Assembly: GCA_963765675.1 (NCBI GenBank)
Contig: CAVXXK010000001.1
Span: 27,485 to 91,484, forward strand
Direction: 5' to 3'
From: an uncultured delta proteobacterium
Lineage (GTDB): Bacteria > Desulfobacterota > Binatia > Binatales > Binataceae
DNA length: 64,000 nucleotides
Shown here: piece by piece, positions 54,137 through 63,579 of the stretch
Layout of the letters: the number at the start of each line of letters is the position of its first letter
How positions within the stretch are numbered: position 1 is the stretch's first letter
The notes under the pieces: model-generated
The model's database searches: none
What the model was told of the DNA's origin: nothing
What the model saw: the letters and a program-made list of their open reading frames with translations, nothing else
Program-made: the position numbers and the translations under genes

Positions 54137-55432
54137 TTATCTGAGTGCTCCCCGGTAGCTCAGTCGGTAGAGCAGACGGCTGTTAACCGTCGGGTCGCTG
54201 GTTCGAATCCGGCCCGGGGAGCCAATCCTAAGTGATTGATATTCCAAGCTTTTGTTATCGCTCTGGGACAAAGCAGTAGATCCGTTAGCAGGCGACTGTG
54301 TGGACTTTTGTGGGGACCCGCTCCTTGGACCGGAATGATCCACCGTTACGTCCGGTTCAAGCGTTGCGATCGCATCGCGGCGCGCCTGCACGCGAATGTG
54401 CGCATACCGACCGAGCATTCGCGGACTGACGTGCCCAGCCAGTTGACGAATCGTTTCCTCCGAGACGGTCGGATTCTCCGCGAGCCGGGTAACGAACGTA
54501 TGGCGGGCGTCGTAAAAACGGATGTTGACGCCCGCCTTCGCGCGAGCGGTATCGAACGCCGTCCGATAGCTCGAATAACTCATGGGCCGGTCGGCATTAA
54601 CGCCATAGATGTGCGGGATGCGGTCGTTTCCTGCGATTGCGACATGATGGAACGGGAACACAAACGATTCTGGATTGGCGTCCGGAAAATGCGACAGCCA
54701 GAGCGTCAGCGCGGCGCAGGCTCGTTGGGTCAGTGGGATCATGCGACCGGTTCCCGCCTCCGTCTTCGAGCGTCCAACTACGATTTCACCCTTGGCGATC
54801 ACGGCATCGCGCCATTCAAGCAGAAGACTCGAGCGGCGCAGCGCGCGAGTCTCGGACGGCCGCAGGCCGGCGTCGATCGAAAGAACGAAGAAGGGATATA
54901 GCGAAGCCGAGCGGCTTTGCCTGATCGCATCAAGCAGCCGCTGCTCATCTTCTCGGCTAAGTGCCTGGCCCACATCCGATCGCTGACGTAACATCCTGAC
55001 GCGACCAGAGATGTGGGACCAAATACCGAAGTGGCGAAGTATCGCGCGAAGCGTGCCGACTTCGGCATTGATCTGGCGCCCGGAAAGCCCCTCAGCTTGG
55101 CGTTTGCGCTGAAGGTCCGCAACATCATCAGCCGAAAAGTCGGTAACCAGCCGGCTCCCAAACTGGCGTGAAAGCTTCGCGATGTATTGCCGGTAATAAC
55201 GTTCCCCCAGAGGTGAGAGGCCGGTCTTGGATTGAAACCATTGGCGCGCTGCCGCCGAGAAGAGCGGTCTTTCCCGTTTCGTCAGACCGTTAACGCCGAG
55301 TTCGAGATCGCGTCGGCGGGCAAGCTCCGCCTGACGGGCAATTGTCTTCGAGTCGGTGCGTGTGCTCTCTCGAATTCGAGCGCCGTCGAATTCAAACTCG
55401 AACCACCAAATATTTCCTCGCTTGTAGAGCAT
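54137..55432 (-). CDS. Tyrosine-type site-specific recombinase/integrase (tRNA-Asn-associated)
   Basis: MLYKRGNIWWFEFEFDGARIRESTRTDSKT… is an integrase SAM-like N-domain. The catalytic region reads …LRPSE…R…YDARHTFVTRL…HVSPRMLGRYAHI… (R…HxxR…Y). The ORF has no stop before it reads through the tRNA 3' half, so the true 3' end is probably earlier. Confidence 0.85.
   Translation of the reverse strand: MLYKRGNIWWFEFEFDGARIRESTRTDSKTIARQAELARRRDLELGVNGLTKRERPLFSAAARQWFQSKTGLSPLGERYYRQYIAKLSRQFGSRLVTDFSADDVADLQRKRQAEGLSGRQINAEVGTLRAILRHFGIWSHISGRVRMLRQRSDVGQALSREDEQRLLDAIRQSRSASLYPFFVLSIDAGLRPSETRALRRSSLLLEWRDAVIAKGEIVVGRSKTEAGTGRMIPLTQRACAALTLWLSHFPDANPESFVFPFHHVAIAGNDRIPHIYGVNADRPMSYSSYRTAFDTARAKAGVNIRFYDARHTFVTRLAENPTVSEETIRQLAGHVSPRMLGRYAHIRVQARRDAIATLEPDVTVDHSGPRSGSPQKSTQSPANGSTALSQSDNKSLEYQSLRIGSPGRIRTSDPTVNSRLLYRLSYRGALR
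54149..54224 (+). tRNA. tRNA-Asn (anticodon GTT)
   Basis: 76 nt. Acceptor TCCCCGG/CCGGGGA, D-arm GCTC-AGTCGGTA-GAGC, anticodon arm GACGG-CTGTTAA-CCGTC (GTT), T-arm GCTGG-TTCGAAT-CCGGC, discriminator G plus CCA. Confidence 0.92.
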
Positions 55433-55539
55433 GGCGTCACCTGTTTTTCGCGATCCGGGTGGATCGCTCCGCCCTGAGGTCACGGGATTTTAGGATGAAG
55501 GAAATGATTCTCGGAGAGCATCGGGTTAAAGCATTTCGG

Positions 55540-55773
55540 TTAATGCACGCTGCTTGCCTCAGCGACGTAACGGCGGACTTCGGGATCTAGCACGACGACT
55601 CGACGGCCAAAATGGGCGGCTCGCAGGTGGCCGCGCTTGATCTCAAGACGCAGGAAGGGAACCGAGACGCTCAGGCTCTGAGCCAGATCGTTGAGGGTCC
55701 ACCCCAGTTTCGGAGCAACGTGCCGGGCGGCGTCGGAATTGGATGGGATTGGAGAATTGGTATGAACAAACAT
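55540..55773 (-). CDS. AlpA/excisionase-family helix-turn-helix DNA-binding protein
   Basis: …LNDLAQSLSVSVPFLRLEIKRGHLRAAHFGRRVVVLDPEVRRYV… It lies between the integrase and relaxase genes. Confidence 0.7.
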   Translation of the reverse strand: MFVHTNSPIPSNSDAARHVAPKLGWTLNDLAQSLSVSVPFLRLEIKRGHLRAAHFGRRVVVLDPEVRRYVAEASSVH

Positions 55774-56000
55774 GATGACAAAAAACCTCGGAGATTGCTT
55801 TCACCGGACGGAAAGAGCGTTTCAGTGGAGTTACTAGCTACATAGCTATATCCACGCATTATGTCAAGCCCCGCTGCACCAGGTCGCGCGTGCGAACCGC
55901 GATGGCAGGGAACGGCACGCGACTGTCCGCGCCCGCGTCCCGAAGGGAAGGGCGCTCCGATACCTGCTTGGGTGCGCAGCATTTTGAAAGCGCCGCCCTC

Positions 56001-58985
56001 TCAACCGAGTCTGGAGGGCGGCGCAGGATTCTGAGACGCGTGTGGCGGAGCGTAGCAACCGTGCCGAGCGCAGCGTCCGGCGCGGGTGCCGGCGGCGCGG
56101 TTGCCCGCGGAGCGCGCGCCACCTTTACAGCGGCGCGAAGCGGAGCGCGAGGCGTGCGATGCACGCCGTGTCCGAGCGGCGAAGCTTGCGGAGCCCGAGC
56201 GTCCGCGCTCATAGCGAAGCGCCGATGAAAAAATGATTCGACGACAGCGTTCGGCAAGACCAGTCACCTTCTGATGCCGTGGGCAGGGGTGATGCTCTGG
56301 CGCGGCGGTTCTGGAACCATCTTGAGGTCTCGCGCCCAGGTTTAGGTTGAGCCGTTCCAGGGCGATCGACTTTTCGCGGTTGCGGCCGACCGCGTGCCGG
56401 AGGGCGGAACTGTCGTCGGTGTAGACGGTGACCCCGTGGCGCGCGCGGCTGATCGAGACGTAAAACTGTTTGCGGTTCACGAGTTCAGCCGAGCGAGCGG
56501 TATCGATGTTGACGATGACGCGGTCGACCGTCGCGCCCTGGCTGGAATGCGAAGTCGAGGCGTAACCGTAGTCGATGTGGCGGAGCCGACTGGCCGCGGC
56601 TTTGACTTCGCGCCCGTCGTCCATCCGCAGCGCGGCCTTTCGGTCGTCGATTGCAACGACCGTCGCAAAATCTCCGTTCGCGACGCCGAGCGCGCGGTCG
56701 GGTGCGCGGAACTGGATGCGGTCGCCCTTGGCGATGACTCTGCGCTCCTCGCGGAACAGATCGACGCCGGTGAGCCGCGCTGGGTTGTATTCAACTGCTC
56801 GACCGTCTTCGGTGCGCACGGTGATCCGGTTGAGATCCGAGTCTGTACTCTCGACTCGTGCGTACGTGTCCTTGCCGAGCCCAAGATGGCGGCTGCCACG
56901 GCGGTAGCGAATCACGTCGCCAACTTCGTAACTCTGAGCGCGCTGGCGCTGTGCGGTGGTTAGGTTGCGGTTGACGAGGATGATCTGCTCTTTCCCTTCG
57001 GCGCCGACATGGGAGCGCTGCTTCAGGAGTTCGCGAATGGCGGAGTTGAGTTGCCGGCGCTCGTCGTTGGCAGGACTGACGACCAATACGCGCTCTCCGG
57101 CCTCGTGCGCGGTGACGTATTCCTGTGCGATGGATTTATATCGCGCATCAGGATTGTCGATCTCGCGGATGCGGTCATGCTGCTCGAGCAGCGCGAGCGC
57201 GCGATCGATCTCTCCTTTGGCCGCAAGCTCCACTGCTTCGCGAAGGATAGGGTCCCGCTGGCGGCGAATCGTGTCCAGCCGCGCCACCGCATCCCGGCCT
57301 GCTGCATCTGGTGGATCGGGTCGTCCCGCCTCGATCGCATGGTGCTGATGCTGGTCGCCGACGAACACGATCCGTTCCACGCCTGCGTCGCGGGCCTGAT
57401 GAAGGAGGCGGTTGACCTGGCGCGTCGCGAGCAAACTCGACTCATCGACGATCCATAATTCCTGACGGCCAGAAGCGGAGATTTTATTTTCGATCAGACT
57501 TGCCACGGTTCGGGACTCGACTCCGGCTTCGGATAGCGCCTTGACCGCGCGCGTGGTCGGAGCAAAGCCGCGCACGGCGTAGCCGTGCTCTTCGGCGAAC
57601 TCGCGGATCGCTCCGACCGTGGTGGTCTTCGCGCTGCCGGCGCGGCCTTCGATCGAGGTGAGCCAGTCGGGCGTCGTGAGGATAAGTTGCGCGACTTCGA
57701 TTTGATCGGCGAACAATCCTCGGTCCGTTGCCCATCGGCGAATCTCTGTGTCATTCGCGATGGGCAGAATTTGGCCTTGGCCCGCGCGCATCAGGTCGAG
57801 GTTATCGCGCTCAAGGGCGAGCATCTCGGAAGTGGTGAAGGTGCCGCCCGGTGAGGCGATGGAAGCGTCCAGGACGATCAGCGCGCGGCGTTGTTCCCAA
57901 GCCATGCCCTCGCGGCGCAACTGGTCGAGATCAATTACTCCCATCGCGTGCTGGAGGGCGGTTGCTTCGAGCGCGCGACGGTCGATCACCGCCTCGCGCT
58001 CGGTGCTGTGCGCCACGGCGAAGCGAAGCGCCTCCTCGATCCTTGCCTGGGTGGAGACCCGAACGGCGGCCTGGGTGTGGGAATGGCCCTCGAAGCGGAT
58101 TCCGTAATCTCGCGCGCGCATGCGCCACTCCTCGCGAAGCTCGCCCTCGTCGCGCTGCTGCTTTGAGAGCCGGCTCTGATGAGCGATATTCTGCGCCGCG
58201 GCCGCTCCGCTGAGGCCGTTTCGCGCGAGCGTCTGCTCGATGTCCCGGCGGCGGCGCGAGAACGCCATCACCTGTTCTCGGCTATAACCTTCGAGCTCCC
58301 AGCGTCCATCGCCGCCGGTAACCGTGATGCCGTAGCCAAGTGAACGTACTTCGCGAGCCAGCTCGGAGCGATAAACCGCGCTGGCGAAGCTCTGTGAGCG
58401 ATAGATCTCGACCGGGTCGAGCCCACGCCATGCGCCGTCGGGCCGGCGAGTCATGTTGGCGATGACGACGTGGGTGTGGAGATGCGGATCGGGACCGTAG
58501 CCGTCATCTGCACCTTTGGCTGGACGCGCCGCGATATGGTCGAAACGCGCGGCGACGATGTTCCGGGTGAGTACCCATTCGCTGCCGCCCTTCTGACGCG
58601 ACAGCGCGTAATGCTCCAGCTCCGTCAGCGCGGTGCTGACCGCGCGGCGATGCGCATCGGTCAATCCGGCGTCTCCACCCGCCAGCGCCTGAATGCTGAC
58701 CGACTTGGGCGCGTTGAAGGTCGCGTCCCATCCCGCGCGGCGTTCGGTTCGTCCATTGGCGTTGCGGACGAGAACTTCGGCAGTGCCCGGCTGTTGGCCG
58801 CGAAGTATCGCGCGAAAATCTTCGGGAGCGACTTCGTCAGAGAGCCCGAGTGCGTCGGCGCCCTGCCCGAACCATTGACCGACGACTCGATGTTCTTCGG
58901 TGTAGTAATCGTCCTGCGAGTACTTCTCTTCGTAGTAGGTCTCGGCCTGACCGGCGCTGAGCGCCCCGCTCGACATGACCAGCAT
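56001..58985 (-). CDS. Conjugative relaxase-helicase, MobF family (TrwC/TraI-like)
   Basis: N-terminal …AETYYEEKYSQDDYY…NAPKSVSIQALAGGD…HLHTHVVIANMT… is the 3-His relaxase motif. The central/C-terminal RecD-like helicase carries the Walker A motif GRAGSAKTT. The ORF tail beyond ~residue 850 is low-complexity. Confidence 0.9.
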   Translation of the reverse strand: MLVMSSGALSAGQAETYYEEKYSQDDYYTEEHRVVGQWFGQGADALGLSDEVAPEDFRAILRGQQPGTAEVLVRNANGRTERRAGWDATFNAPKSVSIQALAGGDAGLTDAHRRAVSTALTELEHYALSRQKGGSEWVLTRNIVAARFDHIAARPAKGADDGYGPDPHLHTHVVIANMTRRPDGAWRGLDPVEIYRSQSFASAVYRSELAREVRSLGYGITVTGGDGRWELEGYSREQVMAFSRRRRDIEQTLARNGLSGAAAAQNIAHQSRLSKQQRDEGELREEWRMRARDYGIRFEGHSHTQAAVRVSTQARIEEALRFAVAHSTEREAVIDRRALEATALQHAMGVIDLDQLRREGMAWEQRRALIVLDASIASPGGTFTTSEMLALERDNLDLMRAGQGQILPIANDTEIRRWATDRGLFADQIEVAQLILTTPDWLTSIEGRAGSAKTTTVGAIREFAEEHGYAVRGFAPTTRAVKALSEAGVESRTVASLIENKISASGRQELWIVDESSLLATRQVNRLLHQARDAGVERIVFVGDQHQHHAIEAGRPDPPDAAGRDAVARLDTIRRQRDPILREAVELAAKGEIDRALALLEQHDRIREIDNPDARYKSIAQEYVTAHEAGERVLVVSPANDERRQLNSAIRELLKQRSHVGAEGKEQIILVNRNLTTAQRQRAQSYEVGDVIRYRRGSRHLGLGKDTYARVESTDSDLNRITVRTEDGRAVEYNPARLTGVDLFREERRVIAKGDRIQFRAPDRALGVANGDFATVVAIDDRKAALRMDDGREVKAAASRLRHIDYGYASTSHSSQGATVDRVIVNIDTARSAELVNRKQFYVSISRARHGVTVYTDDSSALRHAVGRNREKSIALERLNLNLGARPQDGSRTAAPEHHPCPRHQKVTGLAERCRRIIFSSALRYERGRSGSASFAARTRRASHASRSASRRCKGGARSAGNRAAGTRAGRCARHGCYAPPHASQNPAPPSRLG

Positions 58986-58988
58986 GAC

Positions 58989-60800
58989 TCATGCCCTCAA
59001 TCTGCGGGGAGGACGTGGCGGTCGCGGGCCGCCGCTTCCCGGCGGCACAAGGAGCGGCCCGCTGCTGTCGTTTGGCGAGTCCGGCGGCAAGTCAGCGGGT
59101 TCAGTCCGGCAGATGAACCCCGGATGACGCCGGAGCGGCGCGAGATACGGAATCGTGACTTTCGCTCGACGGTAGCCGGTGATGCAGAGATAACCCTCGA
59201 ACGGGCGCAGCATCTGAACCTCACTCGCGAGCGCGACGCTCTCCACCTGCCGATGCGGGTGGATAGTAAAGCCGTCGCGGGAGTCGCCCAGCCGGGTGCT
59301 CTGACCGACGAGACCTCGGCTGACTTCGCGCTCACCGATCTGCGCACTCGACCACCGCGCGGTCTCGGCCTCGCCGGTACGCAGGATCAGCTTGGTGGCG
59401 GGCGCGGCGGCCAGAGTTGCGGTCTGGTCGTGCCCGTAGATGGCGCGAAGCTGGGTGATGGCTTGAAGGCCCAGCACCGCGCAGAGCCCGCGCTTGCGTC
59501 CGCGCACCACCAGCGTTTCGAGCTCGGCCTGACGGCGGAGCACGGGCAGCTCGTCGGCGATGATCCAGACTTTGCCGCGTGATCCGTCGTCGGTCATCAG
59601 ACGTCGCACGATGCAATCTAGCCAGACGCTCTGGAGCGGCAGCGCCGCCTCGCGCGAGTCCTCGGTTGAGCTGAGAAACAGCCACCCCTCACGGGTTCGC
59701 GCCCATTCGAGCGCGCTCCAGGCGTGGACGGCGGATCGCGGAAGATGCCGAAACGAACTGGTCGCGTTGAACGCCGTCGCGACGATTCCGGCGCCCTGCT
59801 CGTGCGCGCCTGGATCGATGAGGACCTCGGCGGGAGTCCCTCGGAGCGCTTCCTTCAGCTTGGCGCGGGGCAGCGCGAGCAGCTTCGGAAGCTCGCCCGG
59901 TTCCCTGGACTTGGCCGCGTCGAGCAGGCCGACGATGAGCGTGCGGGCCGACTGCCGGAAGAAGAAGTCGGCGCCGCCCTGACCGAAGGTATTCGCCGGG
60001 TCGGGAACCAGCGCCGCCGCGAGCGCTTCGGCGTCCATCGCCTCGCTTCCGGGTCTGAGCTCCGACCATGGTGTCCACGCCGGGCAGCGGGTATCGAGCG
60101 GGTTGAGGATCAGATCGCCGCGCTCGGGCCGGAAGAACTCAGGCAGGTACTCGCACTCGGGATCGAGCACGACCGCACTCTCTCCGCGTGCTTCGATCTG
60201 CCGGAGCATCCGCCGGATCGCGGTGGACTTGCCCGAGCCGGGCGCGCCGACCAACAGAAAGTGTTGCGACTCCAGCGCGCGGGGAATCAAGACGCCGCCG
60301 AGTTCGACGCCGTCGCCGCTTAAGTCCCGGCGCAACCGCCGGCTCGGGATTACATCGGTCCCGCGCACGTACTCGTCTTCATCTCCTGCGCCACGGGGCG
60401 GAAAGATGATCAGGAGGCAGGCTCCGACTATCAGAGCGGTGATGACCGCGCCCCAAGGTGCATAATGCCAGAACCAGCCCGCGAACGAGCCGCCGAGGTA
60501 GTACCTGCGGTTGAGGAAGTCGTACATGCTGGCGATGGTGTAGCGCTGGCCGCGGTACGGCAGTGACGCGAACGTTAGTAGAATCTCCTGGGTTAGAAAC
60601 CACGCCAGGAACCATCTCACGAAGTACCGGTGCGCCGCGGTCCCGCCGTAGTGGCCAGTCCAGTACCAGACCAGCGCAACCGTCAAAAGCGCCCACAGAA
60701 GCGCGATGAGGAGCACCGCGCGGAGCGCCGTTTGCGCCCAGACATGCAGCGATGCGAGGTCGGCGCGTCGTCTGACCGCCCGATCAACATATGCGTTCAT
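58989..60800 (-). CDS. Type IV coupling protein (TraD/TrwB/VirD4 family)
   Basis: N-terminal TM helices. Walker A …FLLVGAPGSGKSTAIRRML…. Walker B …VWIIADELPVL…. The start ATG overlaps the upstream stop (ATGA). Confidence 0.88.
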   Translation of the reverse strand: MNAYVDRAVRRRADLASLHVWAQTALRAVLLIALLWALLTVALVWYWTGHYGGTAAHRYFVRWFLAWFLTQEILLTFASLPYRGQRYTIASMYDFLNRRYYLGGSFAGWFWHYAPWGAVITALIVGACLLIIFPPRGAGDEDEYVRGTDVIPSRRLRRDLSGDGVELGGVLIPRALESQHFLLVGAPGSGKSTAIRRMLRQIEARGESAVVLDPECEYLPEFFRPERGDLILNPLDTRCPAWTPWSELRPGSEAMDAEALAAALVPDPANTFGQGGADFFFRQSARTLIVGLLDAAKSREPGELPKLLALPRAKLKEALRGTPAEVLIDPGAHEQGAGIVATAFNATSSFRHLPRSAVHAWSALEWARTREGWLFLSSTEDSREAALPLQSVWLDCIVRRLMTDDGSRGKVWIIADELPVLRRQAELETLVVRGRKRGLCAVLGLQAITQLRAIYGHDQTATLAAAPATKLILRTGEAETARWSSAQIGEREVSRGLVGQSTRLGDSRDGFTIHPHRQVESVALASEVQMLRPFEGYLCITGYRRAKVTIPYLAPLRRHPGFICRTEPADLPPDSPNDSSGPLLVPPGSGGPRPPRPPRRLRA

Positions 60801-61176
60801 TGCCTAATACCTCCGTCGCCTCCGAGGCGGTCGATGTAGTCGCGCGCGGCCTTCTCCGACGCCTCGATGATCTCGTCCACCGCAGACTCGCTCAGGCTCT
60901 GGTCGAGCGCGTGCAGGAACGCCGAGCGAGTCTTCACCACCTCGAATAACAGCCGCGTGAATCTCTCCGAGCGTTCTGTTCGAGCCGTTCGCAGGCTTTG
61001 CTGAGTGCGGCGGAGCCGCCAACTGCTGTTTCGGCGAGGTGCATGTACGTATCGACGACCAGCGACTGAATCAGCGTGGTCGGCGATAAGCCTGAACTTG
61101 CCGCCTGCTTTTCGACTCGCGCGGCGAGCGTCTCAGGCAGCCTGATCGTGTAGGTTCTCTTGCTCTCCTGGCTCAT
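60797..61176 (-). pseudogene. TrwA-like relaxosome accessory protein (ribbon-helix-helix), frame interrupted near 60985-61000
   Basis: The N-terminal frame MSQESKRTYTIRLPETLAARVEKQAASSGLSPTTLIQSLV… is an RHH fold, then terminates. A second frame with no start codon continues …FTRLLFEVVKTRSAFLHALDQSLSESAVDEIIEASEKAARDYIDRLGGDGGIRQ* and ends in ATGA overlap with the T4CP start. This implies a single-nt indel. Confidence 0.6.
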
Positions 61177-61415
61177 CTGACTGGACCTCCGCGCTGCAAG
61201 CATCTGTTTGCAATGGAAAATCAAGGGTTTCCGACGGTTCGCTGATTCGCTTCCACGTCTGTGTACACGTCGCGAAGCACGCGTTTACGCTGAAAGATCG
61301 CGGGCTTTTCTCCATCTCCGTACTCGTTGCTGCAAGCAGGCTTCATTCGCGAATGAGTGACGTGTCATCAACTCACACGCGCAAAGCGCGTCTGCGCATT
61401 TGGTACTGCTGCGAG

Positions 61416-61691
61416 TCAGCCTTGTGACTTGGCGTCGCCGTTGGACAAAGAGGAACTGGGGCGGCGATGATGACTGCCGCCGCCGCTGGAACGTGACCAG
61501 GTCTGGAACTCACGGTCAGCTTGCAGGAAGGCACTGAGAATCTCCGGAATCAGCGCCTTCGAATCCACGGCGTCGCCGTGAACGTGCTCGTAGTAGCGCG
61601 CGTAGCCCTCGAGCGCGGCATTCAGGTCGCCGGCCAGCGTCACGCGCACCTGTAGGGAACGAAGCGGCTTTGCGATGCGTGCGAGTTTCAT
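61416..61691 (-). CDS. DUF2274 domain protein (ICE-associated)
   Basis: MKLARIAKPLRSLQVRVTLAGDLNAALEGYARYYEHVHGDAVDSKALIPEILSAFLQADREF… is the characteristic DUF2274 found beside T4SS genes in ICEs. Confidence 0.75.
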   Translation of the reverse strand: MKLARIAKPLRSLQVRVTLAGDLNAALEGYARYYEHVHGDAVDSKALIPEILSAFLQADREFQTWSRSSGGGSHHRRPSSSLSNGDAKSQG

Positions 61692-61728
61692 ATCGGACCT
61701 CCATTAATGGTTACTCGGAAAGGACTGC

Positions 61729-62058
61729 TCAGAAGGGCGCGAGGTAAGTCAGCAAATGGACCGCAATCAGCGCGGCCCAAGCTGCTACTCCGCCAGCCAG
61801 CAGGCGCCCTGCTCGCGGGTAGCTGCCGATCGCGTACAAGATCGCCGACAGCGCGAAGTTCAGCGCTATCGCGGCGTGAGCCACGGGGCCGACCAGGATG
61901 CCTTGAATCGCGCCGAGCGTCTGGTCCCATGGCATGGCACCGGCGTATTGTGCGGCCCACGATGGCTCGGCTCGAAGCGCGAACAGCGCGGCGGCACAGG
62001 CGGCGATGAGCCATCTGACGTTCGATTTCGGCGCTTGCTTTACTGCGACTGGGATCAT
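61729..62058 (-). CDS. TrbC/VirB2-family T4SS pilin-like protein
   Basis: 109 aa. Signal-like N-terminus …WLIAACAAALFALRAEPSWAAQ…, then two hydrophobic segments (…ILVGPVAHAAIALNFALSAILYAIG…, …AAWAALIAVHLL…). Confidence 0.55.
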   Translation of the reverse strand: MIPVAVKQAPKSNVRWLIAACAAALFALRAEPSWAAQYAGAMPWDQTLGAIQGILVGPVAHAAIALNFALSAILYAIGSYPRAGRLLAGGVAAWAALIAVHLLTYLAPF

Positions 62059-62169
62059 GGGGAGTACTTTTGCGTGGCTACGTGACTAGCTCGCTATGTA
62101 GCGAGATATCGGACGAGTGTCAAGCGTGAAGATCGATCAGCGCGAAACGGTCGGGAGCTTGTTGGCGGG

Positions 62170-62836
62170 CTACTCGGTCAGATAGCCGAGCTGGGAGAGC
62201 CGCACGGTGGCGGCTTCGACGGATACATCGAACGCAAGCGAAATACGCTGGCAGAGCGCTGACGCTTCAGGCGATCCCTTGGCCACCGGCGGGCGCTCAG
62301 AGCGATTCTGGAAATAAGCCTCGACCGCGCGCCGCGCGAAGCTCTCCGGCATCAGCAAGGCACCCGAGGCATAGCCCGCCTGCCATTCAAACCAGTCAAC
62401 GACCGCGCTCGGTCGGAAGCAGGCTCTGCCAGTAACAGCGGTGCGGACTGCGGGCAGCGCCGTACTTGTCGTACAGCCAAGCGTGGAGCATCACGTGGCC
62501 ATATTCGTGGGTCAGGGTCGTGCGCAACCGGTTGTTACGATGCCGTTGCTCCCACAGTTCCCGCGCGATTGTGACCCGCGGCTTTCGGCCGCGCTCGAAC
62601 TGGGTGAAACCAAAGACCTCGTGAATGTCATCGGAAAGATCCGTCGCCAAGTCGAGGTCGGCGGCGTCACGCTCGATCAGCATCGTGACCGCCTCGGTCG
62701 GCACCGGGATGCGTTCAAATCCGAAGTGCTGGCGCAGAAAGGAGGTGATCGTCTCCTCGCACATCTGCTCAAGCTCGCCGATCTCCCAGTGCGGACGCTC
62801 CGGAAAGCGCCCGGTCCTGTCCGGTATCATCTTCAC
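62170..62836 (-). pseudogene. ImmA/IrrE-family metallopeptidase (HEXXH), frame interrupted by a 1-nt insertion near 62420-62460
   Basis: …LTHEYGHVMLHAWLYDKYGAA… contains the HEXXH motif, then the frame is lost. The +1 frame continues …AVVDWFEWQAGYASGALLMPESFARRAVEAYFQ…VEAATVRLSQLGYLTE (track ORF 62170-62358). Confidence 0.7.
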
Positions 62837-63156
62837 GGCTTCTTCCTGCGCTTTACTTCCCGCCGGAACGCCTTCCAGCCTGCGGCGAGTTCCTGCGCAC
62901 TGTTGACGGTCGTCGCGCTGAGGTCGGCTGGAAACCGCCCTGCCAGAAAGTAGAGCACATCCGAATCGACCTTGAGAACCTTGGCGAGTTGTTCAAGGAC
63001 TTCGTCGGAAGGCTTGCGCCGGTCGTGTTCGAGGTCAACCAGGAACGGAATCGAGATCGGCTTGCCATCGGAGTTGCGCACCTCCGCCACCACCTCGCGT
63101 CCCGCCAACCCCAGCTCCTTGCGCCGCTCAACGATGAACTGTCCGAGTGTCTGCAT
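62833..63156 (-). CDS. XRE-family HTH transcriptional regulator (ImmR-like repressor partner of ImmA)
   Basis: MQTLGQFIVERRKELGLAGREVVAEVRNSDGKPISIPFLVDLEHDRRKPSDEVLEQLAKVL… is an HTH_XRE. It overlaps the immA start by 4 nt (ATGA-type coupling). Confidence 0.75.
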   Translation of the reverse strand: MQTLGQFIVERRKELGLAGREVVAEVRNSDGKPISIPFLVDLEHDRRKPSDEVLEQLAKVLKVDSDVLYFLAGRFPADLSATTVNSAQELAAGWKAFRREVKRRKKP

Positions 63157-63279
63157 TAATAGCTATGTAGCATAATGGAATGTGATTAGGAAGATATGCT
63201 GCTCACATCATCCTCTTGCCGTAAGTGTGACACAACTATTCGACTTTTAAACAGTCTCCGCTCCGCTTTGTCTCAAAAC

Positions 63280-63375
63280 CTAATTCTTCTTTTTCCTCTT
63301 CTTTCTTTTCTCCCCCTCCCCCCTCTCCCCCCCTCACCCCCTCCCCCCCCCTCTCCCCCCCGGAGATCTCCCCGA
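63280..63375. repeat. ~95-nt polypyrimidine (C/T) tract with multiple C5-C8 runs (poly-G on the transcribed minus strand)
   Basis: CCTAATTCTTCTTTTTCCTCTTCTTTCTTTTCTCCCCCTCCCCCCTCTCCCCCCCTCACCCCCTCCCCCCCCTCTCCCCCCCGGAG contains only three purines. It explains the spurious Pro-rich +strand ORF 63196-63408. Confidence 0.9.
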
Positions 63376-63565: not shown

Positions 63566-63579
63566 CCCCCCCCCCCATA
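63566..63579. repeat. C14 homopolymer (G14 on minus strand) in the immR-upstream intergenic region
   Basis: GGCTCCCCCCCCCCCCCCATATAT. Confidence 0.9.

Follow-up and report, generated by a model that had tools for sequence, protein, structure and literature searches.

In the integrative and conjugative element (ICE) ICEBs1 of Bacillus subtilis, immR is divergent from Pxis, the promoter of genes for excision and transfer, and several ImmR sites lie within one divergent region. ImmR represses Pxis, regulates its own synthesis, and is cleaved by ImmA (PMC5812530). The DdrO dimer recognizes a palindrome situated at or near the points where transcription begins, the ddrO gene among them, and DdrO represses its own gene; the COG2856 protease IrrE cuts it before its C-terminal helix (PMC6868357). 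The locus considered here lies in a stretch of 64,000 nucleotides (the window) from an uncultured delta proteobacterium of the Binataceae (contig CAVXXK010000001.1, positions 27,485 to 91,484). It is a mobile element linked to a tRNA-Asn gene, which encodes an ImmR-like repressor of the XRE family, an adjacent ImmA-like metalloprotease, and proteins for DNA transfer and excision. An earlier reading of this sequence, hereafter the original prediction, pointed out a palindrome repeated in three intergenic regions of the element and proposed it as an ImmR operator or as a site associated with the origin of transfer (oriT). Comparison with related elements supports the former proposal. The palindrome, GCTA-NN-TAGC, is probably the operator of the element's own XRE/ImmR-like repressor, situated in the core of three sigma-70-type promoters; it is kept where ImmR is at least 69% identical to that of the window and replaced where ImmR is about 43% identical.

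A Palindrome in Three Predicted Promoters

The motif GCTATGTAGC is matched exactly three times in the window, once on the minus strand (55837-55846) and twice on the plus strand (62093-62102, 63162-63171), whereas 0.03 matches are expected from dinucleotide-preserving shuffles, none of 100 of which reached three; a chance origin of the three palindromes is ruled out by this test. The looser form GCTANNTAGC recovers the same three sites and no others, and when one or two mismatches are allowed the window holds 27 matches against 33 expected, which is background. All three copies are intergenic and lie within the tRNA-Asn-linked element, each 5′ of an operon in the coding-strand sense. The three intergenic copies described earlier are thus real, and two of the extended strings quoted for them are found as given (TAGCTACATAGCTA at 55835-55848 and CTCGCTATGTAGCGAG at 62090-62105). 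The third, TAGCTATGTAGCA, is present one base away from its quoted position, at 63159-63171, and the 10-mer core within it ends 5 nt from the immR ATG (63156, minus strand) rather than 4 nt. The gene identities assigned in the original prediction (immR, protease, VirB2-like, relaxase, and xis) agree with the gene annotation of the window. The site that it placed between xis and the relaxase gene is indeed located there, though in the coding-strand sense it is upstream of xis, 63 nt before the ATG, and hence in a Pxis-type position. The motif is not comparably frequent elsewhere, with no further copies in the window and two stray copies in 785 kb of the window and related loci combined. An RNA element was also considered and rejected, as an Rfam search of 53.5-64 kb matched the tRNA alone, and a 16-bp palindrome with a 2-nt centre is too tight for a stable hairpin loop.

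The position of the palindrome relative to promoter elements is the same at two of the three sites. On the minus strand, the xis and trbC sites both read TTGACA-N15-GCTAYRTAGC (31 nt), and TTGACA-N15-GCTANNTAGC has two matches in the window against 0.00 expected. TTGACA is thereby followed, after a 17-bp spacer, by a TAYRTA hexamer, which is TACATA at trbC and TATGTA at xis. The palindrome of the trbC site lies 34 nt before the ATG of the trbC-like gene. The site at PimmR reads TGCTACATAGCTATTAATG, which is of the TGn extended -10 type (TGcTACATA) with a weak -35, and the immR ATG follows 5 nt past the palindrome with no Shine-Dalgarno sequence. Because of this short distance and the missing Shine-Dalgarno sequence, the immR mRNA is probably leaderless; with TACATA as the -10, the first transcribed base would be the A of the ATG or one adjacent to it.

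The related loci described below show how these features are distributed. A T stands directly 5′ of GCTA in all 50 unique PimmR contexts, which are without a good -35, and in 0 of 46 contexts of the TTGAC type; this distribution is the one to be expected if an extended -10 and a consensus -35 are traded off against each other. The ATG follows the TACATA hexamer by 7-8 nt, without a Shine-Dalgarno sequence, in 40/50 PimmR contexts, the transcription start being a prediction. The choice of the ATG is corroborated by homology to the immR genes of the sister elements termed group B below, which have a leader and a GGGAGG Shine-Dalgarno sequence. The autoregulation and leaderless start suggested for immR in the original prediction fit this geometry, in which a gap of 5-6 nt to the ATG is conserved. 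Many database entries for the repressor (P0002, P0003, P0006, P0010, and P0014) are 113-162 aa long instead of 107 aa. The conserved, probably leaderless start would account for such spurious N-terminal extensions, as a start without a Shine-Dalgarno sequence probably makes gene callers extend the open reading frame (ORF) upstream. A generic promoter/terminator scan did not call the three palindrome promoters because of the final A of their hexamer, so that it is comparative geometry on which the promoter reading is based.

Conservation Among Related Elements

A search with the coupling protein as query yielded 16 loci from metagenome-assembled genomes (MAGs) of Binataceae and of organisms named 'delta proteobacterium', which were sorted into two groups by the identity of their ImmR to that of the window. 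In group A (nine genomic loci, ImmR at least 87% identical), GCTA-NN-TAGC is found before immR and before trbC, the latter as TTGACA-N15, in 9/9 loci. The third site, which follows the relaxase gene and reads TTGACn-N15/16-GCTA-NN-TAGC, is present in the window and in eight of the nine loci, even where xis and int are unrelated. In the DNA fetched for L015 a third site is missing, and the contig of L004 stops inside the relaxase gene. None of the nine loci has GCTA-NN-TAGC outside the three promoter classes, in 363 kb. A scan of metagenomes with the ImmR alignment added 75 further loci (422 kb), in which 83 of 84 occurrences of GCTANNTAGC fall within the three promoter classes. In about 50 of these metagenome loci ImmR is 69-99% identical, and an exact copy lies 4-10 nt before the ATG, mostly 5-6 nt, in all but two distinct loci; L024 and L026 have a one-mismatch version, GCTACAAAGC, at immR. 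Among the loci with ImmR at least 69% identical, one site of the trbC class also has one mismatch. The search across relatives that had been suggested as a check on the original prediction thus finds the same promoter positions kept where the repressor is similar, and the motif nearly absent elsewhere.

When unique contexts are compared, the half-sites do not vary, whereas the central dinucleotide is free (CA, TG, TA, AG, AA, CG, TT, GA, GG, and TC are seen), the pattern expected of a symmetric site bound by a dimer. The flanks carry nearly no information besides the -35 box. The palindrome lies 15-16 nt from TTGACA in 41/46 contexts, and three contexts read TTGACA-N19-GCTA, with the palindrome 4 bp further away, so that TAGCTA falls at 17 bp in the -10 register. 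This displacement argues that the palindrome is a unit of its own and more than the -10 hexamer.

Two further sequences accompany the operator at some sites. Downstream of the trbC-operon site (O1), a degenerate second site (O2) is kept in the closest relatives in the form GTCAyrTAGC; it would fall just past the predicted transcription start and is taken to be a putative additional repressor site. Directly upstream of the immR operator (..GCTGATATGCTACATAGC), many loci carry GCT-NN-TAT (e.g., L003 7560-7590 and L017 7966-7995), which is not found in the window and may belong to the promoter or act as an auxiliary half-site.

Co-Variation of the Palindrome and the Repressor

Six genomic loci (group B; L005-L008, L010, and L014) and about 20 metagenome loci have an ImmR 41-49% identical to that of the window. 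In group B the immR-immA module has moved to a place between the relaxase gene and xis-int. In both sets of loci, no GCTANNTAGC is found at the promoters. Instead, a different palindrome, CTGCAT..ATGCAG, occupies the same three promoter classes (immR, trbC, and xis). At immR, CTGCATGCAG lies just before a GATAAT -10, with a leader of about 30 nt and the Shine-Dalgarno sequence mentioned above; at trbC, CTGCATACATGCAG lies just after an upstream TGCTAnnAAA box; and at the xis-side genes, CTGCATGCAG or CTGCATGCAA follows a box resembling TGCTAnnAAA. Groups A and B thus share the same logic, with sites at the repressor's own gene, the transfer operon, and the excision genes, but differ in sequence and register. 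The half-site spacing of CTGCATGCAG and CTGCATACATGCAG differs by 4 bp, for which one dimer geometry offers no obvious explanation.

The predicted recognition helix of the repressor changes with the operator. The helix ISIPF/YLVDLEHDRR is present in every ImmR homolog at least 56% identical to that of the window and differs in homologs at most 52% identical, that of group B being ISAPYLNDLEHNLR. Two helix/operator pairs can therefore be distinguished, ISIPFLVDLEHD with GCTA-NN-TAGC and ISAPYLNDLEHN with CTGCAT..ATGCAG. Of four more distant ImmR homologs, none has GCTANNTAGC and three have other recognition helices, which is consistent with co-variation. Repressor specificity and operator sequence would thus have changed together between sister elements, and the two pairs could serve as orthogonal parts. 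ImmR is proposed as the binder because ImmR alone partitions with the palindromes; Xis, Int, and the ribbon-helix-helix (RHH) protein do not.

The Repressor and the Protease

The N-terminal part of the window ImmR is a helix-turn-helix (HTH) domain of the XRE/Cro-cI type, as in the ImmR/ImmA and DdrO/IrrE switches, and its Pfam HTH_3 score of 22.1 bits is just under the cut-off of 23. Sequence matches in the PDB are DBP48 and DdrO. The AlphaFold2 model (predicted local distance difference test, 88) consists of a five-helix XRE domain, a linker of lower confidence at residues 72-86, and a C-terminal helix at residues 87-103. The top Foldseek match of this model is 9a7f_A (RGHR-DLDH1 integrative model; E 3.7e-4), but more can be learned from its matches to DdrO (36% identity over 69 residues), SinR, P22 c2, and the DNA-binding domain of ICEBs1 ImmR (7t8i, about 25% over the HTH). 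The modeled linker and C-terminal helix are compatible with protease cleavage near an oligomerization helix. The family is small, with 135 matches in metagenomes and Binataceae MAGs, all unnamed 'XRE-family' proteins, and no description of it was found in a literature search.

The second hallmark of such switches, an adjacent HEXXH protease of the M78/COG2856 type, is encoded directly after immR, with a 4-nt overlap and the motif HEYGH. Intact homologs of this protease are 221 aa long; the copy in L002 scores 22.5 bits against the Peptidase_M78 cut-off of 22, and no Pfam match beyond M78 was found.

Proposed Mechanism

It is proposed that immR and immA are transcribed from PimmR, at which the TGn-TACATA extended -10 would direct a start at or within 1-2 bases of the ATG and produce a leaderless immR-immA mRNA. 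The operon of the trbC-like, DUF2274, RHH, coupling-protein, and relaxase genes would be driven by TTGACA-17 bp-TACATA, and xis-int by Pxis with TTGACA-17 bp-TATGTA. A repressor dimer on the palindrome would cover about -14 to -5 and exclude RNA polymerase. In this manner bound repressor would silence the genes for excision and DNA processing and limit its own synthesis through negative autoregulation. Induction would presumably occur through cleavage of the repressor by the co-transcribed M78/COG2856 metalloprotease, as with ImmA and ImmR or IrrE and DdrO.

A more specific version of this model is offered tentatively, with doubt slightly outweighing confidence. The palindrome could be both the -10 and the operator, with TAnnTA kept symmetric at the cost of the last base of the hexamer. 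Each operon would then have a one-site, non-cooperative switch, promoter strength would be supplied by TTGACA or TG, and sister elements would have re-coded the half-site and the recognition helix. If true, Binatota, a phylum that has no genetics, would contain repressor/operator pairs that are orthogonal by nature.

Several observations weigh against an ImmR operator within the promoters. The centres of the half-sites are 6 bp apart, which is short for classical operators of the Cro/cI type, and the symmetry continues into the flanks in a manner that depends on the promoter class (CTC..GAG, or TA..TA); the true contact surface may therefore be 14-16 bp. The TAnnTA hexamer ends in A where the usual last base of a -10 is T, and the assignment of promoters depends on geometry and on the complementarity between TG and the -35. 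One homolog, P0080 (L092 726-1447), is 57% identical and has the same recognition helix, yet its 1.8-kb contig is without GCTANNTAGC. This homolog is translationally coupled behind a second HTH gene and adjoins a gene for single-stranded DNA-binding protein; since its gene context differs, it is either uninformative or mildly contrary. Lastly, immA of the window is frameshifted near 62400, with its C-terminal part in another frame. The induction arm may be dead in this element, or the frameshift may be a sequencing error.

Alternative Explanations

The palindrome might be merely a conserved promoter core (-10 plus discriminator) for the RNA polymerase holoenzyme, its symmetry being incidental and no repressor being involved. 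The nearly fixed distance to TTGACA, the location of TA..TA in the -10 register, and the TG extension exactly where the -35 is weak are all in keeping with this explanation. However, a -10 hexamer predicts neither the invariant G/C flanking TAnnTA nor the free centre, and in the three displaced contexts the palindrome has moved while the -10 register has not. In the same host family, sister elements have an ordinary -10 (GATAAT or TAnnAA) together with a separate and different palindrome, and the motif is absent from the 54 kb of host DNA in the window; a promoter core alone is an unlikely account. Alternatively, the sites might be bound by the TrwA-like RHH protein or by the excisionase rather than by ImmR, given that the element encodes an RHH protein and that repression of transfer operons and binding to short symmetric sites are common among such proteins. 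Groups A and B differ in their palindromes but share the DNA-reading β-strand of the RHH protein (K/R-TYTIRLPE), and RHH identity to the window protein (39-77% in group A, 46-54% in group B) does not partition with the motif; the RHH protein is accordingly rejected as the binder. Xis and Int are excluded because loci with the motif in common have Xis and Int that are non-homologous or only about 25% identical. In addition, the palindrome goes with immR where the immR-immA module of group B has been relocated. Binding by the RHH protein or the excisionase instead of ImmR is thus regarded as very unlikely.

The original prediction also allowed that the two sites away from immR could be transfer-gene promoters or oriT. 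The promoter part of this suggestion agrees with the TTGACA-N15 geometry, while the oriT part conflicts with the presence of three copies. On a third alternative, the TrwC relaxase or the integrase would use the palindromes as oriT/nic or recombination sites, in favour of which it can be said that relaxases recognize inverted repeats and that the relaxase gene is closely followed by one of the copies. Yet each element has three copies, all spaced at a fixed distance from a -35 box, and groups A and B have different motifs despite relaxases that are about 66% identical. Moreover, a separate hairpin block (GACACGTCACTCATTCGCGAATGAAGC, 61340-61366) is found once per element, as expected of a single-site oriT, in the intergenic region 61225-61415 upstream of the RHH gene. 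Groups A and B as well as L013 have kept this block, which follows an ACGCGC..GCGCGT inverted repeat and shows a compensatory change in its stem (TCATT..AATGA against TCATC..GATGA). Judged by these sequence features, the block is likely to be oriT. It also has the position of oriT upstream of trwA in R388. Since this separate conserved block tracks the relaxase module, the palindrome needs no oriT role and fits none. Nor, within the window or within 7.5 kb upstream of immR in relatives, does any direct repeat related to the tRNA attachment (att) site include the palindrome, and an att-site or direct-repeat role was rejected. A role of the palindromes as processing or recombination sites is therefore most improbable, and the operator of the ImmR-like repressor remains the preferred reading.

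Gene Content and State of the Element

Every gene of the region is encoded on the minus strand, the order of transcription being immR, protease, trbC-like, DUF2274, RHH, TrwB-type, TrwC, xis, and int (Table 1).

Table 1. Proposed regulatory sites, genes, and other features of the tRNA-Asn-linked element (window coordinates).
Feature	Positions	Strand	Remarks
Proposed operator at PimmR	63162..63171	minus	TG-C-TACATA-GC = GCTACATAGC after T; ends 5 nt before immR ATG
Proposed operator O1, promoter of the trbC-like/DUF2274/RHH/coupling-protein/relaxase operon	62093..62102	minus	Core of 16-bp palindrome CTCGCTACATAGCGAG; overlaps TACATA -10
-35 TTGACA, trbC-operon promoter	62118..62123	minus	Consensus; 17 bp upstream of TACATA; invariant in relatives
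Degenerate second site O2	62077..62086	minus	Minus-strand GTCACGTAGC; its start is 16 bp downstream of the O1 start
Proposed operator at Pxis	55837..55846	minus	GCTATGTAGC within TAGCTATGTAGCTA; overlaps TATGTA -10; 63 nt upstream of xis ATG
-35 TTGACA of Pxis	55862..55867	minus	Consensus hexamer
immR-like gene	62833..63156	minus	107-aa XRE-family HTH; Pfam HTH_3, sub-threshold
immA-like metalloprotease gene	62170..62836	minus	M78/COG2856 (SprT/M78-like); HEYGH; 4-nt overlap with immR; frameshifted near 62400
TrbC/VirB2-like pilin gene	61729..62058	minus	First gene downstream of O1
DUF2274 gene	61416..61691	minus	Domain match
Candidate oriT core	61340..61366	minus	GACACGTCACTCATTCGCGAATGAAGC, hairpin, upstream of RHH gene; outside the palindrome regulon
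RHH (TrwA-like) gene	60797..61224	minus	Frameshifted in the window, about 60950
TrwB-type type IV coupling protein gene	58989..60800	minus	Domain match
TrwC-family (MOBF) relaxase-helicase gene	56001..58985	minus	Domain match
Excisionase-like HTH_17 gene (xis)	55540..55773	minus	Domain match
Tyrosine integrase gene	54137..55483	minus	ORF 3′ end overlaps tRNA-Asn
tRNA-Asn(GTT)	54149..54224	plus	Adjoins int; one element boundary

Between immA and the RHH gene, the window element has only the TrbC-like and DUF2274 genes where relatives have more. In L054-56 and L061 (ImmR 71-74% identical) and in L095 (43%), immR-immA lies directly upstream of a virB11-trbC-virB3-virB4-trbL-virB8/9/10 operon. The promoter of this virB11 operon reads TTGACA-N15-GCTACTTgGC in L054-56, and in L061 a related palindrome lies 17 nt after TTGACA. 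L013 also belongs to the relatives with a full VirB/Trb type IV secretion operon, and no secretion-system genes were found within 7.6 kb upstream of immR in L002. Because relatives carry the full secretion operon and the window element has only the TrbC-like and DUF2274 genes of this region, its gene content looks like that of a mobilizable deletion derivative that has lost its secretion system, rather than that of a complete ICE.

The element bears other signs of disturbance. The RHH gene is frameshifted relative to intact homologs of about 135 aa, with its C-terminal part in the other frame, and frameshifts also occur in the related MAG loci L001, L011, L015, and L016. The frameshifts in immA and the RHH gene could be sequencing indels or reflect decay of the element. 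Just upstream of the immR promoter lie a long C/T-rich low-complexity tract at 63283-63362 (poly-G-like on the minus strand) and a 13-nt C homopolymer at 63566-63578, which look like an assembly or sequencing artefact or a mis-join. Such an artefact may account for the lack of any match in relatives to the sequence upstream of immR, and for the absence of a second att site among the results. At the other end, the integrase ORF runs about 29 codons through the opposite-strand tRNA-Asn (54137-54224), and the attachment core is therefore probably inside the int 3′ end. No repeat of the tRNA-Asn end was detected in the window or, in relatives, within 7.5 kb upstream of immR. Relatives with other integrases adjoin tRNA-SeC, tRNA-Pro, or tRNA-Arg.

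Comparison With Known Systems

Like ICEBs1, the element has an XRE-type repressor gene followed by a COG2856/M78 HEXXH protease gene in one operon, and by analogy the repressor would act over its own promoter and Pxis and be relieved by proteolysis. The arrangement differs in that immR-immA is co-directional with the transfer genes, int accompanies xis rather than immR, and three separate promoters are used. The palindrome of 10 bp is present once per promoter and is fused to the -10, and immR is probably leaderless. The host belongs to the Binataceae and not to the Firmicutes, and no analogue of RapI/PhrI was seen.

DdrO of the DdrO-IrrE system in Deinococcus is the closest solved relative of the repressor HTH, and the ImmR model shares with it a linker and a C-terminal helix. 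DdrO, however, is chromosomal and controls DNA-repair genes through the 17-bp radiation/desiccation response motif (RDRM), whereas the regulon proposed here is that of a mobile element, with three promoters and a 10-bp core. The protease is also distinct, being 221 aa long with a Pfam match to the M78 domain only.

In phage lambda, the cI gene at PRM stands at or next to the transcription start, is without a Shine-Dalgarno sequence, and has an operator in its own promoter. The immR gene is likewise start-proximal and without a Shine-Dalgarno sequence, with a proposed operator in its promoter. CI activates PRM from OR2 and acts through three cooperative operators; a single site over the -10, as proposed here, predicts simple negative autoregulation instead.

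The comparison with trwA-trwB-trwC of R388 concerns the oriT candidate and not the palindrome. The order of the RHH, TrwB-type coupling protein, and TrwC genes is the same, and the hairpin block lies just upstream of the RHH gene; the likeness drawn here is one of gene order and position.

Taken together, the proposed switch is of the ImmR/ImmA or DdrO/IrrE type, in a new host lineage and a new element family. For the uncharacterized mobile elements of soil and peat Binataceae (Binatota), it provides a regulatory map in which one repressor would act on one operator sequence at three promoters. The general picture of ICE immunity control is unchanged, as it was already established for ICEBs1 and related XRE/COG2856 systems.

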